Shown here: positions 690 through 3,977 of the stretch, one piece after another | Layout: each line of letters starts with the position of its first letter | Position numbering within the stretch: the stretch's first letter is position 1 | IMG/VR virus record: IMGVR_UViG_2660238209_000014 | Source of the DNA: a virus | Lineage: Duplodnaviria > Heunggongvirae > Uroviricota > Caudoviricetes | Reading direction: 5' to 3' (one strand) | Length of the DNA stretch: 4,119 nt | Position numbers and translations under genes: made by a program | Notes under the pieces: model-generated | Databases searched by the model: none | What the model saw: the letters and a program-made list of their open reading frames with translations, nothing else | Told to the model about the DNA's origin: nothing

Positions 690-700
690 CGTCAACCTCA

Positions 701-940
701 TCAGTCAGTGTTTCTGGTTAACCAGCGACGCGCGCCAGCTTCAGTTTTAAACGTTTTGCTTCTGGTATACGTCATCGCGGTAAACGTGCCGTCCTGGTTG
801 GGAAACACGCCGTACACCAGAGATTCGTTGTTGCCAAGATCGATAGTATCCATGCTGACCTCATTTCCCCTTAACGCTGGGGTAGCGGAACTAAAAACCT
901 GCTGCGCTGTTATACAAAGTGTTCCCGCCGTCATGTTCAT
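701..940 (-). CDS. small hypothetical protein, first gene of the leftward cassette (79 aa longest form; alternative starts at 934 and 853, the latter giving 50 aa)
   Basis: ORF track 701..940 minus. GAGG lies 3 nt before the ATG at 940 and 9 nt before the ATG at 934. The internal ATG at 853 has the best ribosome-binding site (GAGG, 5-nt spacer). Stop TGA at 703-701 overlaps the next ATG. It sits just downstream (in the transcription direction) of an operator-like palindrome. No family recognised; a competing plus-strand ORF 708..983 has a GTG start and no RBS. Confidence 0.45.
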   Translation of the reverse strand: MNMTAGTLCITAQQVFSSATPALRGNEVSMDTIDLGNNESLVYGVFPNQDGTFTAMTYTRSKTFKTEAGARRWLTRNTD

Positions 941-1034
941 ACGCCTCGGGCTGGCTACTTACCCCCTGACCACTGCTTGGTAACTCGAAGTATTGCCCGG
1001 CGTTCTGTGGGGCGGGGTGGGTTGGTATGTTGTT

Positions 1035-1054
1035 AAGGTAACAAGAGTTACCTT
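1035..1054. promoter_or_regulatory. operator-like palindrome AAGGTAAC-AAGA-GTTACCTT (putative OL-type repressor binding site)
   Basis: Perfect 8-bp inverted arms with a 4-bp spacer. The core GTAAC-N4-GTTAC is the same as the two palindromes between the repressor and cro genes (1801-1814, 1849-1862). This 14-bp core pattern occurs exactly three times in the window, all at regulatory positions. Weaker half-site-like sequences lie nearby (980-993). Confidence 0.55.
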
Positions 1055-1096
1055 TTGGGTTAATACAATGTTGCAAAAGGTACATTTGAGGGCATG

Positions 1097-1120
1097 AAAA
1101 ACCCGCAATGAATGCGGGTT
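1097..1120 (-). terminator. Rho-independent terminator just downstream of the repressor gene (minus-strand orientation)
   Basis: 8-bp GC-rich stem (1100-1107 AACCCGCA pairing with 1113-1120 TGCGGGTT) and a 5-nt loop, followed on the minus-strand RNA by a U-run (A-run 1097-1101 on the plus strand). It begins 5 nt after the repressor stop at 1126-1128. No U-tract follows it on the plus strand, so it looks unidirectional. Confidence 0.65.
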
Positions 1121-1125
1121 CTGAC

Positions 1126-1800
1126 TCAGTCTAAGTATTGATGTATTTGTGAAACTTTACCTTTAATGGTGTAACCACCATTCAGTTCGATGGGTTTGTA
1201 AAGCGGATTCAGTGACAACAGATAGATGTTTGGTCCGTCAATCGCAACTTTTTTTAGTGTTACGTTTGGCGTTCCTTCCAATTGGATTAAGATTATTTTT
1301 CCCACCAGTTCTCTAATGTTACTTGAGCATGGTGTGATCAGCACGGTAGATCCGTCGGGGATGGTTGGGAGGCCGTTAGAGTTTGTCATCGCATCTCCCT
1401 CAACATGCAATAAAAAAGAGTTTTCAGCGGTTTTTGTCATGACATCAACCCAATTCTTAATACCAGGAATCTCGGTTACTGGACAACTCATATCCCAATA
1501 ACCAGCCTGTTCCCACGTTAAAACGGGCAACCGGGCGATGTTGTCACTAATGTAAGGGTACTGATTCAGACGCAGATCATCGGCTTTATCGTGACCGTCC
1601 TTTCCATAAAGAATCCATTCAGGAGATTTGGAAAGCAATTTTGACAGTAGATACAAATTCTCACCGTCAGGTTTTGAAGAGCCATTTTCCCATTTTGTTA
1701 CGGATACACGAGATATGCCGATTGCTTTCGCAACCTGCTGTTGGGTTAATCCAACGTCTTTTCGACGATTCCGAATACGTTCGCTGATAGTGTTTTTCAT
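1126..1800 (-). CDS. cI: CI/C2-type prophage repressor: N-terminal XRE-family HTH plus C-terminal LexA-like (S24) domain, with Ala at the catalytic Ser position
   Basis: ORF track gives 1126..1842 (238 aa). I favour the ATG at 1800 (224 aa): that N-terminus (MKNTISERIRNRRK...) matches the start of P22 C2/434-type repressors as I recall them, and it places both operator palindromes and a consensus TTGACA in the intergenic region. HTH: LTQQQVAKAIGISRVSVTKWENG. Ala-Gly cleavage-site motif (WEQAGYW) present. The S24 motif reads VEGDAMT where LexA, lambda CI, UmuD and P22 C2 have G-D/N-S-M. Lys of the dyad is retained (VTLKKV). Tail LNPLYKPIELNGGYTIKGKV parallels lambda CI [20 protein letters not shown]. 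Confidence 0.9.
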   Translation of the reverse strand: MKNTISERIRNRRKDVGLTQQQVAKAIGISRVSVTKWENGSSKPDGENLYLLSKLLSKSPEWILYGKDGHDKADDLRLNQYPYISDNIARLPVLTWEQAGYWDMSCPVTEIPGIKNWVDVMTKTAENSFLLHVEGDAMTNSNGLPTIPDGSTVLITPCSSNIRELVGKIILIQLEGTPNVTLKKVAIDGPNIYLLSLNPLYKPIELNGGYTIKGKVSQIHQYLD

Positions 1801-1891
1801 GTAACCAATGTTACTACCAAGTGATGTTGCTATGGTTGACATTGTTATGTAACTATTGTTACCCTTCTACTCGAAATAACAGGAGAGTTTT
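1798..1891. promoter_or_regulatory. OR-type divergent operator/promoter region between the repressor and cro genes
   Basis: Two near-identical sites, ATGTAACCAATGTTAC (1799-1814) and ATGTAACTATTGTTAC (1847-1862), each a GTAAC-N4-GTTAC palindrome. Consensus -35 TTGACA at 1836-1841 faces rightward, with a weak -10 candidate TACCCT at 1860-1865 (18-bp spacer) overlapping the second operator. AGGAG at 1881-1885 lies 6 nt before the cro ATG. No Shine-Dalgarno precedes either candidate repressor ATG, so the repressor mRNA may be leaderless as for lambda cI from PRM. The leftward promoter hexamers could not be assigned confidently. Confidence 0.6.
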
Positions 1892-2107
1892 ATGTTCAAA
1901 GATGATGTTCTGCGCTATTTCAAAAAAAAGCGACTAGTAGCTGAGGCTCTTGGAATTTCACATGTGGCTGTTGTGCGGTGGAAAGCAGTTATTCCCAAAC
2001 TTCGCGCAATGGAACTGGATGAAATTACTAACGGTGAATTGAAATACAACCCAGAACTTTACAAGAAGCAGGATAGCACCTCAAACGAAGGAAAGAATGA
2101 TTCATGA
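1892..2107 (+). CDS. cro: Cro-like small HTH regulator (YdaS-like)
   Basis: 71-aa ORF with a good RBS (AGGAG, 6-nt spacer). HTH segment RLVAEALGISHVAVVRWK. Divergent from the repressor gene across the operator region. Its stop TGA (2105-2107) overlaps the next ATG (2104-2106) as ATGA. Confidence 0.8.
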   Translation: MFKDDVLRYFKKKRLVAEALGISHVAVVRWKAVIPKLRAMELDEITNGELKYNPELYKKQDSTSNEGKNDS

Positions 2108-2529
2108 AAATCAAGCATGAACACATCCGCATGGCGATGAATGTCTGGGCGCATCCGGACGGCGAAAAAGTACCGGCTGCGAAAATTACCAAAGCGTATT
2201 TCGAGCTGGGAATGACGTTCCCGGAACTGTATGACGACAGCCATCCGGAAGCCCTGGCCCGTAATACCCAGAAAATTTTCCGTTGGCTGGATAAAGACAC
2301 CCCTGATGCTGTTGAAAAAATGCAGGCTCTGTTACCGGCGATCGAAAAGGCGATGCCGCCTTTGCTGGTGGCCCGTATGCGCAGCCACAGTTCTGAATAT
2401 TACCGTGAGATCGTCGAACGGAGGGATCGGCTGGTGAAGGATGTCGATGATTTTGTTGCGTCAGCGGTTGTTTTGTATGACCAGATGAATCGCGGCGGCC
2501 CGGCAGGGAATGCTGTGGTGATGCACTAA
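2104..2529 (+). CDS. ydaT: YdaT-like protein (CII functional analogue; family formerly annotated as a putative toxin)
   Basis: 141-aa ORF, translationally coupled to cro. The N-terminus MKIKHEHI and the C-terminal ...VVMH end match my recollection of Rac prophage YdaT; its position right after cro is the cII position. Identity is from memory and needs a search to confirm. Confidence 0.75.
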   Translation: MKIKHEHIRMAMNVWAHPDGEKVPAAKITKAYFELGMTFPELYDDSHPEALARNTQKIFRWLDKDTPDAVEKMQALLPAIEKAMPPLLVARMRSHSSEYYREIVERRDRLVKDVDDFVASAVVLYDQMNRGGPAGNAVVMH

Positions 2530-2551
2530 AAGCACGGTGTTCGGGGGTTTT

Positions 2552-3514
2552 ATGAGCAGCAAGCTTCATGGTCTTGTCTGGGAAGGGTGCGCCTTCACCG
2601 GCATGATCTTATCCAGGGTGGCGGTTATGGCCCGTCTTGCAGACTACAGCAATGACGAGGGCGTGTCATGGCCTGCCATTGAAACTATCCGGCGTCAGAT
2701 CGGTGCAAGAAGTGAATCCACAGTGAAATCGGCTATTGCAGAACTGGCGAAAGAGGGCTGGCTGACGAAGGAAGAGCGTAAGGTCGGTGGGCGTAATGTA
2801 AGCAATATCTATCGGCTTAATGTGGAAAAACTCGAAGCAGCTGCTGCGGCGGCGCGTGAGTCATATAAACCGAAAAGAAAAATTAGCCCGGCAAAAAATG
2901 ACCCGTTAACAGTTGACCCGTCAAATATTGACCCCTCAACGGTTGACCCGTCAAATTTTGATGGATCAACTGTTGATAAAAAACTGCCGATTAGGGGGGC
3001 GATGATTGACCCCGATCCGTCAGTATTAAAACCTGATCCGTCAGATAAAAGATCTTCTTGTCCGGACGCTTCGCAACCGGACCCGCAGACGGCTGAACAG
3101 GATTTTTTAACCCGACACCCTGACGCGGTTGTGTTCAGTGCGAAAAAACGCCAGTGGGGAAGTCAGGAAGATTTGGTGTGCGCACAGTGGATCTGGGGAC
3201 GAATCGTGAGTCTTTACGAGCAGGCGGCCAGCGATGATGGCGAGATCACTAGACCGAAAGAACCCAACTGGACAGCATGGGCCAATGACGTTCGCACAAT
3301 GCGGATGCTGGATGGCAGAACTCACAGACAAATTTGTGAAATGTTTGGGCGTCTCCAGCGGGATTCGTTCTGGGTAAAAAACATCATGAGTCCGGCAAAA
3401 CTCCGGGAAAAATGGGATGAACTGGTTATCCGCCTGGGGCGTTCGCCTGCGCAGCGTTGCGTGAATCACATTTCTGAACCGGACACTGAAATTCCGCCGG
3501 GCTTCAGGGGGTAA
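2552..3514 (+). CDS. phage replication initiation protein (lambda O-like role; N-terminal winged-HTH DNA-binding domain, Pro/Asp-rich linker, C-terminal domain)
   Basis: ORF track 2537..3514 (GTG start). I favour the ATG at 2552, preceded by GGGGG with a 4-nt spacer (320 aa). N-terminal segment LSRVAVMARLADYSNDEGVSWPAIETIRRQIGARSESTVKSAIAELAKEGWLT has the pattern of phage replication-initiator HTH domains. The origin iterons lie inside the coding sequence and encode the repetitive linker DPLTVDPSNIDPSTVDPSNFDGSTVD, as lambda ori lies inside O. Confidence 0.85.
   Translation: MSSKLHGLVWEGCAFTGMILSRVAVMARLADYSNDEGVSWPAIETIRRQIGARSESTVKSAIAELAKEGWLTKEERKVGGRNVSNIYRLNVEKLEAAAAAARESYKPKRKISPAKNDPLTVDPSNIDPSTVDPSNFDGSTVDKKLPIRGAMIDPDPSVLKPDPSDKRSSCPDASQPDPQTAEQDFLTRHPDAVVFSAKKRQWGSQEDLVCAQWIWGRIVSLYEQAASDDGEITRPKEPNWTAWANDVRTMRMLDGRTHRQICEMFGRLQRDSFWVKNIMSPAKLREKWDELVIRLGRSPAQRCVNHISEPDTEIPPGFRG
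2899..2988. repeat. replication-origin iterons: tandem ~15-bp repeats, consensus TGACCCGTCAAnnnT (4 good copies, 2 degenerate), followed by an A-rich stretch
   Basis: TGACCC(G/C) begins at 2899, 2914, 2929 and 2944, an exact 15-bp period; degenerate copies begin at 2959 and 2974. Iterons 2 and 4 (and iteron 3 with one mismatch) contain an internal dyad TTGAC-CC-GTCAA. Related repeats GATCCGTCAG occur at 3014-3023 and 3035-3044, with an A/T-rich stretch at 2974-2990. Confidence 0.7.
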
Positions 3515-3554: not shown

Positions 3555-3977
3555 GTGGCAAAAGTTTTTACACAAGAAGAGCAGGAGAAAATTAAAGGGC
3601 AGGTTGTTGAACTCGTACGCCAGAGTGGGCGCGAGACGTTACGACAACTGGAAACTAAAACTGGGGCAACAAGATATCTGATGAGCGTTCTGGCCAGAGA
3701 GCTGGTTGCCAGTGGCGATGTATACAACTCTGGTTACGGGTTATTCCCGTCTGAACAGGCGCGTAAGGACTGGCAAAATGCCCGTAAAAAGCTCTCAAGG
3801 GCAAAGCTGAAGAAACCATCTGCGGTTGATCCGGACCTTATCTGGTCATTACCTGACGGAGAAATACGTCGCTACGACAGGCGTCTGAACATAATCTGTC
3901 TCGAGTGCCGGAAGAGCGAAGTTATGCAGCGCGTACTGGCGTTTTATCAGGGGAATTTTGAGGAGGTGGTGCGGTGA
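3555..3977 (+). CDS. hypothetical protein (140 aa) immediately downstream of the replication initiator; function unknown
   Basis: ORF with GTG start at 3555 preceded by a strong AGGAGG (3545-3550, 4-nt spacer). Basic, Lys/Arg-rich; no family recognised. It sits where lambdoid phages usually carry a helicase loader or helicase gene but is far too small to be a DnaC/P/DnaB-type protein. Confidence 0.6.
   Translation: MAKVFTQEEQEKIKGQVVELVRQSGRETLRQLETKTGATRYLMSVLARELVASGDVYNSGYGLFPSEQARKDWQNARKKLSRAKLKKPSAVDPDLIWSLPDGEIRRYDRRLNIICLECRKSEVMQRVLAFYQGNFEEVVR

Follow-up and report, generated by a model that had tools for sequence, protein, structure and literature searches.

Where does the repressor gene of a lambda-like prophage begin, when the DNA in front of it can be read either as protein or as operator? 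The question is posed by a 4,119-nucleotide stretch of viral DNA (Caudoviricetes; IMG/VR record IMGVR_UViG_2660238209_000014; referred to here, at its full length, as the window), in which the longest open reading frame of a leftward repressor gene starts with an ATG at 1842, a second in-frame ATG lies at 1800, and palindromes occupy the interval up to the divergent cro gene. A first-pass annotation, made from the letters alone, had favored the shorter start, had taken the palindromes for operators and had proposed a leaderless repressor mRNA. In this article, I will argue that 1798-1865 is very probably the right operator region (OR) of a lambdoid prophage with a repressor of the P22 C2 type, and that its OR3 site is fused to the true start codon, ATG 1800. 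The features that this argument needs, with PR, PL and PRM for the rightward, leftward and repressor maintenance promoters and OL for the left operator, are these:

1126-1842, minus strand: repressor, longest open reading frame, 238 amino acids, with an in-frame internal ATG at 1800
1126-1800, minus strand: repressor, true reading frame as judged here, 224 amino acids, HTH_3 and Peptidase_S24 domains
1801-1842, minus strand: the 14-codon "extension", judged non-coding and made up of OR3, a spacer and OR2
1801-1814, unstranded: OR3, perfect, GTAAC-CAAT-GTTAC, adjoining the repressor ATG and holding the proposed PRM -10
1826-1839, unstranded: OR2, degenerate, TCAAC-CATA-GCAAC on the minus strand, its OR1-proximal end overlapping the PR -35
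1849-1862, unstranded: OR1, perfect, GTAAC-TATT-GTTAC, overlapping the PR extended -10
1038-1051, unstranded: OL1, perfect, shared in part with the PL extended -10; it follows a terminator hairpin and lies about 75 bp beyond the repressor stop
1070-1083, unstranded: possible OL2 (tentative), GTTGC-AAAA-GGTAC, three mismatches, 32 bp from OL1
1836-1841, plus strand: PR -35, TTGACA, at the OR2 edge
1857-1865, plus strand: PR extended -10, TGtTACCCT, 18 bp past the -35 and covered by OR1
1808-1813, minus strand: proposed PRM -10, TAACAT, 4/6 matches to consensus, inside OR3 and ending 7 nt before the A of the ATG
1063-1058 and 1043-1035, minus strand: PL -35 TTAACC and, after 17 nt, extended -10 TGtTACCTT

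The sequence itself is as first described: ATGTAACCAATGTTAC at 1799-1814 and ATGTAACTATTGTTAC at 1847-1862 differ twice (positions 8 and 10 of 16) and share the core GTAAC-N4-GTTAC, there are ATGs at 1842 and 1800, and a perfect TTGACA lies within the longest open reading frame. The observation of two clear sites stands for the OR region, although a third perfect copy of the core lies well outside it, so that the 4,119 bases contain the motif at 1038-1051, 1801-1814 and 1849-1862. None of 200 dinucleotide-preserving shuffles produced a single copy of this perfect palindrome with its 10 specified bases, and allowing two mismatches or fewer gives six matches in the window vs a mean of 1.44, which, taken with the conservation in relatives described below, supports the original suggestion that the palindromes are operators. 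The copy at 1038-1051 overlaps a leftward extended -10 just as OR1 does at PR, with identical register, and is therefore read as the left operator with PL. A degenerate third site in the OR region had also been suspected, and one is present at 1826-1839, in the exact register of the conserved middle site of relatives (CAAAC-N4-GTTAC); it is accepted on positional homology, because with four mismatches it is not significant by sequence. The operator centers accordingly fall at 1855.5 (OR1), 1832.5 (OR2) and 1807.5 (OR3), 23 bp apart between OR1 and OR2 and 25 bp between OR2 and OR3.

How general this arrangement is can be seen from loci gathered from 20 divergent members in other Enterobacterales genomes, four intermediate relatives (65-89% identical), the phages ZF40, AH07, mEp390 and vB_EcoS-733R5, and 80 near-identical viral contigs; the layout comparisons draw on 25-28 of these loci, with repressors 43-89% identical and hosts from many Enterobacterales, and the site scan on 25 loci of about 3.5 kb each with at most one mismatch allowed. 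Read on the repressor strand, all members of this specificity have the same order, namely GGTAAC-N4-G(G/T)TAC (OR1), 8 nt, OR2 as (G)CAAAC-N4-GTTAC or a weaker variant, 11 nt, and OR3 as GTAAC-AT(T/C)(G/A)-GTTAC followed at once by ATG AAA. The end of OR3 coincides with the conserved ATG-AAA in 27/28 aligned loci, the remaining one having a 3-nt insert, and in the scan a site ends exactly at the ATG in 25/25 relatives, OR1 sits at the same -48 position in 24/25, and one to three OL sites, often paired at 32-35 bp, lie 38-121 bp past the repressor stop in 23/25 (one locus has its sites about 1.1 kb downstream and none was found in the other). Elsewhere in these 25 loci the scan returned a single stray one-mismatch match, within coding sequence. 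The 28-locus alignment thus consists of three conserved blocks separated by unconstrained spacers, with columns -14 to -1 nearly invariant, and the three OR sites stand about two helical turns apart, two of them perfect in the window and the third degenerate but positionally conserved throughout the 28 loci.

Two observations belong beside this alignment. Phage mEp390 (locus L004, 1470-1545) has a related repressor with a different palindrome, GTAGG-N4-CCTAC, which also ends exactly at the ATG and contains TAGGAT in the same place as the window's TAACAT; a design in which an operator ends at the AUG is in this way common to three operator specificities (the window type, mEp390 and P22/21). In most relatives there is also a conserved AT after OR1 on the repressor strand (columns -48/-47; 1847-1848 in the window), just as the AT of the ATG (1799-1800) follows OR3, and it is because AT follows both sites that the repeats were first seen as 16 bp and not 14 bp long. 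This AT may belong to the operator, be a feature of the PR spacer or be left over from a duplication.

The promoters are interleaved with these sites. At PR, the last T of the -10 hexamer (column -65) lies outside the operator core and yet is invariant in 28 loci, and TGTCAA, the complement of the PR -35, is invariant across the five closest sequence types. At PRM, the TA...T pattern of the proposed -10 (columns -13 to -8) is invariant across the same 28-locus alignment, and the hexamer pair ACCATA/TAACAT matches consensus at 6/12 positions; going by the position of TAACAT and the PRM start annotated for P22, the transcript is predicted to start at A1802, with a 2-nt leader, or at A1800, with none. 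A PRM -10 within the OR2-OR3 spacer was considered too and rejected, that spacer being unconserved in the alignment.

Taken together, these features suggest a switch of the following kind. I infer from the conservation and placement of the sites that repressor dimers, and presumably Cro too, would bind GTAAC-N4-GTTAC, with repressor filling OR1 and OL1 first and the weak OR2 probably being occupied cooperatively with OR1. Repressor at OR1 would cover the PR spacer and extended -10, and at OR2 the PR -35, turning off the cro-ydaT-O operon, and at OL1, in the same register, it would block PL. The repressor itself would be made from the weak maintenance promoter whose -10 lies inside OR3, from an mRNA beginning at the AUG or 2 nt before it and translated without a Shine-Dalgarno sequence. 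Since OR3 both holds the PRM -10 and ends at the start codon, its occupancy by excess repressor or by Cro should stop repressor synthesis.

Several observations weigh against this account and should be set out before its competitors are considered. OR2 matches the core at just 6/10 positions, and the PR -35 confounds its left half. The PRM -35 region, the poor hexamer ACCATA, falls inside OR2, whose center at about -30 to -32 excludes activation in the style of lambda, and a generic sigma-70 consensus scan calls no promoter at all within 1790-1890; the scan is empty because both -10 hexamers are non-consensus, and the promoter calls therefore rest on the TTGACA, the TG of the extended -10 and comparative conservation. 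RefSeq/PGAP (WP_000103686.1) and most database entries carry the long form of the repressor, and the five closest sequence types all keep the frame open with an upstream ATG or GTG, so that a minor long isoform is possible in them.

The poor -35 and the empty scan also lend themselves to another explanation, which accepts the short start but gives the mRNA a leader: transcription of the repressor would come from a more distant upstream promoter (for example within cro or past it, resembling PRE and activated by YdaT), the internal AUG would be used without a Shine-Dalgarno sequence, and OR3 would act as a roadblock and not as a promoter element. A YdaT-activated establishment promoter, PRE, does exist between ydaS and ydaT in CP-933P (PMC8630535), and such read-through transcripts therefore probably occur during establishment. 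As the whole story, however, this is unlikely, since it leaves unexplained the zero distance between OR3 and the ATG in all but one of the 28 loci, together with the invariant TA...T in OR3 and the constant ATG start, since the homologous P22 PRM start has been mapped 4 nt before the AUG, and since a lysogen would block any maintenance promoter lying past OR1. A leaderless mRNA, or one with a 2-nt leader, is well supported but unproven.

If the 238-amino-acid frame were the real repressor, then 1801-1814, 1826-1839 and the TTGACA would all be coding and the residues NIGYM would form a functional N-terminal arm. This form is what PGAP annotates, it is found on at least 1,000 contigs compared with 111 for the 224-amino-acid form (e.g., BAI35000.1), tblastn alignments extend into the upstream region, and 12/21 database homologues are called with an N-terminal extension in which the pattern xxTxxTxxxxNIGYM looks conserved in a protein alignment. 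At the level of DNA, the same conservation has a different origin: NIGY-M is AAC ATT GGT TAC ATG, the right-hand portion of OR3 with the start codon after it, and the T..T derives from OR2. Conservation of the extension follows three palindromic blocks with no codon periodicity and no relaxation at third positions, and the 11 nt separating OR2 from OR3 are practically random in sequence. When the window is compared with four closer relatives, the extension shows 2 synonymous and 21 nonsynonymous codon changes, with the differences falling equally on all codon positions, whereas the first 80 real codons give 101:77 and an obvious surplus at third positions (Fisher p = 9e-6, from pairs that share a reference and are not independent).

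Many relatives could not make a longer protein even in principle. In 13/24 the stretch from the nearest in-frame stop upstream, often a TAG 14 codons up, to the conserved ATG contains neither ATG, GTG nor TTG, and wherever a start does exist the length of the extension differs, with possible starts at -6, -8, -14, -16 or -26/-30 codons; mEp390, with its other palindrome in place, has a stop 7 codons upstream of its ATG. The ATG at 1842 arises simply because the PR -35 and the base after it (TTGACA-T) read ATGTCAA on the opposite, minus strand; the base that completes it varies (GTG in locus L108), and no Shine-Dalgarno sequence precedes it. The short start lacks one as well, because the 14 bases before the ATG are operator (...ATTGGTTAC or ...ATTAGTTAC), and it is ATG in 28/28 loci, never GUG or UUG, with a Shine-Dalgarno sequence in none of them, while cro has AGGAG. 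The alignment with P22 C2 pairs its residue 6 with residue 5 of the short form, so that the two N-termini coincide within one residue.

The absence of any upstream start in 13/24 relatives, the block-wise palindromic conservation, the 2:21 codon ratio and the P22 C2 N-terminus, together with the junction of OR3 and ATG-AAA in the alignment, lead me to conclude, on comparative sequence grounds, that the short start at 1800 is correct, as first proposed, and that the 14 codons at 1801-1842 are untranslated; that the long form is the real repressor is highly improbable. The check originally suggested, an alignment of the N-termini of homologues, with conservation of the 14 extra residues counting as refutation, fares less well than the claim it was meant to check. 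Protein alignments do seem to conserve these residues, while the DNA beneath them shows the operator, and the proposed refutation is, from this comparison, misleading, as it reads operator DNA as protein. As for the remaining idea, that the palindromes are bound only by Cro or some other factor and not by the S24-domain repressor, it has in its favor that none of these loci has one of the two genes, cro and repressor, without the other, which leaves co-variation unable to separate them, and it is hardly credible, given that all characterized lambdoid switches (lambda, 434 and P22) share operators between both proteins and that a further copy of the site is found just beyond the repressor gene at OL, where it overlaps PL, the classic repressor target for immunity.

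The preferred reading, an OR region with OR3 fused to ATG 1800, has consequences that are mainly for annotation. For hundreds of E. coli genomes it moves the repressor start 14 codons inward from where RefSeq/PGAP and most databases put it, although the 224-amino-acid start has already been chosen by some annotators. It also exposes a general trap: where regulatory DNA is conserved and by chance has an open frame, it can pass for a conserved N-terminal peptide. Because RefSeq/PGAP and most gene callers take the longest open reading frame, operator DNA is translated into the protein databases, and it therefore shows up as a conserved N-terminal motif in alignments. The repressor is, in addition, a candidate for the small set of E. 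coli genes whose mRNAs are naturally leaderless. Our understanding of such switches is unchanged, and the value of the locus lies mainly in its annotation and in being a clean example of an operator posing as a peptide. GTAAC-N4-GTTAC, with its predicted OR1-3 and OL sites, is apparently an immunity specificity so far uncharacterized; literature searches for this operator sequence and for repressor-switch precedents returned nothing specific to this repressor family, only the precedents cited in this article.

In the repressor protein, Pfam assigns HTH_3 to the N-terminal part (E = 3.8e-17) and Peptidase_S24 to the C-terminal part (E = 1.1e-16); the protein is 36% identical to P22 C2 (E = 1e-43), and its PDB matches are to P22 C2 and lambda cI. 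The catalytic Ser of the S24 domain is replaced by Ala (VEGDAMTN; codon GCG at 1390-1392 on the minus strand, number 137 in the short form and 151 in the long form). Ala occupies this position in 84 loci of the window's sequence type (the near-identical contigs, the window, and loci L111 and L112) and in two Salmonella loci, and Ser in all other relatives, in lambda cI (GNSM) and in P22 C2 (GDSM). The Ala-Gly site (EQAGYW) and the Lys are retained; RecA-stimulated self-cleavage calls for an Ala-Gly site and a Ser-Lys dyad, of which the Ser is lost. With Ala in place of the catalytic Ser, the repressor is therefore predicted to be insensitive to RecA, in a decayed prophage that carries dicB.

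From here one can go a step further and propose, tentatively and as something less likely than not, two things jointly: that the switch has been locked permanently in this E. coli lineage, which is widespread (about 700 of 5426 complete genomes), and that the fusion of operator, -10 and mRNA 5' end is a design rule of the P22 C2 superfamily. Under the first, the operators, the autoregulated near-leaderless promoter and the Ala-Gly site may all have been kept in a repressor that is immune to RecA-stimulated cleavage, and if this is true, the DicB/Kil-type leftward operon of a decaying prophage would stay silent regardless of the SOS response. Under the second, one 14-bp element ending at the AUG may recur across the whole superfamily with at least three operator specificities.

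The window as a whole is the part of a lambdoid E. coli prophage that governs immunity and early replication. Its other features are as follows:

701-853/940, minus strand: DUF1391 (ydfA-like) gene
1096-1121, minus strand: likely the repressor terminator, an intrinsic hairpin and U-run directly after the repressor stop (folding -15.4 kcal/mol, z = -3.7)
1892-2107, plus strand: cro, P22_Cro family, with the Shine-Dalgarno sequence AGGAG at 1881-1885
2104-2529, plus strand: YdaT/cII-like gene
2537-3514, plus strand: O-like replication gene (HTH_36 protein)
3555-3977, plus strand: DUF977 gene

The product of 1892-2107 is assigned to P22_Cro with E = 2.9e-16, and relatives share the gene order, with cro divergent from the repressor and then the cII-like (YdaT) and replication genes. 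A consensus terminator scan did not list the hairpin at 1096-1121, which is supported by folding; in an Rfam scan the hairpin gave a weak chance match to the Trp_leader family, and the scan as a whole just two sub-threshold chance matches. Inside the O-like gene, 2878-2976 holds five to six tandem repeats of 15 nt (or 30 nt) of the type TTGACCC(G/C)TCAA, which encode a recurring DPS(N/T)(I/V) peptide and look, from their sequence and placement, like origin iterons within an initiator gene, as in lambda ori. E. coli strain E2855 (NZ_AP018796, 1108473-1109189) carries this prophage; its chromosome is 100% identical to window positions 690-2110, and at least 80% of this stretch is present in 702/5426 complete E. 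coli genomes. A megablast search of phage records matched mosaic pieces only, with no record spanning both the repressor and OR at high identity. The leftward operon of E2855 runs on to dicB, and the prophage is decayed, with a frameshifted integrase and an insertion sequence (IS) element within the exonuclease gene.

Among known systems, the design of an operator set against a leaderless repressor gene has been met more than once. In the telomere phage PY54, the cI mRNA begins at the AUG, as determined by rapid amplification of cDNA ends (RACE), and an operator is adjacent, although PY54 is a different type of phage with other repressor and operator sequences, and its Cro binds only OR3 (PMC4488713). 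In CP-933P (Sp12), the repressor PaaR2 was found to be leaderless by 5' RACE and N-terminal sequencing, the palindromes overlap PRM, PR and PL with an operator adjoining the repressor gene, and the rightward module has a P22-type Cro (YdaS), a YdaT/cII analogue and replication genes, as here; unlike here, PaaR2 is unrelated in sequence and without an S24 domain, the operators are four 18-bp repeats of another consensus, and a toxin-antitoxin pair lies downstream (PMC8630535).

Lambda shares with the window a tripartite OR between divergent repressor and cro genes, the use of the same operators at OL, and a PR whose -35 overlaps the OR2 edge and whose -10 overlaps the OR1 edge (the cro-proximal edge of OR1 in the window), and its repressor mRNA is leaderless (PMC10491246). 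The first-pass annotation went astray in citing it as the case in which OR3 adjoins the start of cI, for lambda OR3 ends 10 bp before the cI ATG with the PRM -10, TAGATT, in between, and its operator centers lie at -19, -42 and -66 from the transcript start, compared with about -6, -31 and -54 in the window. Activation of PRM with the geometry of lambda, OR2 at -42, was considered and rejected, because any mRNA that contains ATG 1800 puts the OR2 center at about -32 or nearer. Lambda cI also resembles the repressor of the window far less than P22 C2 does (E = 5e-14 for the full-length lambda repressor), and the 76-residue N-terminal domain of P22 C2 alone scores comparably to that full-length protein.

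The exact precedent is P22 and not lambda. Its immC region has a homologous repressor, a cro of the P22_Cro family and three OR operators with the same center spacings of 25 and 23 bp, the last base of OR3 adjoins the c2 ATG, and the PRM -10, TAAGAT, lies inside OR3 in the same register as TAACAT; the P22 hexamers AGGAAT/TAAGAT score 6/12 against consensus, equal to those of the window. The RefSeq record of P22 places the PRM 5' nucleotide 4 nt before the ATG and 6 nt after the hexamer, compared with the 2 nt or 0 predicted here, and the operator centers, at -5.5, -30.5 and -53.5 from the transcript start, are the same in the window if transcription begins at A1802. Since P22 shows the same operator numbers, the apparent contradiction in the geometry is resolved: a characterized homologous switch has the same layout. 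Poteete and Ptashne are said to have found, in 1982, that P22 repressor at OR2 stimulates PRM. The differences from P22 are that its operators are of the 18-bp ATTTAAGA-N2-TCTTAAAT type and not built on a 14-bp GTAAC-N4-GTTAC core, that PR in the window, relative to the operators, is displaced toward cro by about 15 bp, that OR2 is a good palindrome in P22 and degenerate in the window, and that P22 C2 has the catalytic S24 Ser where the window has Ala. What the window holds is very probably an ordinary P22-type switch of a lambda-like prophage, with a specificity that is apparently new.

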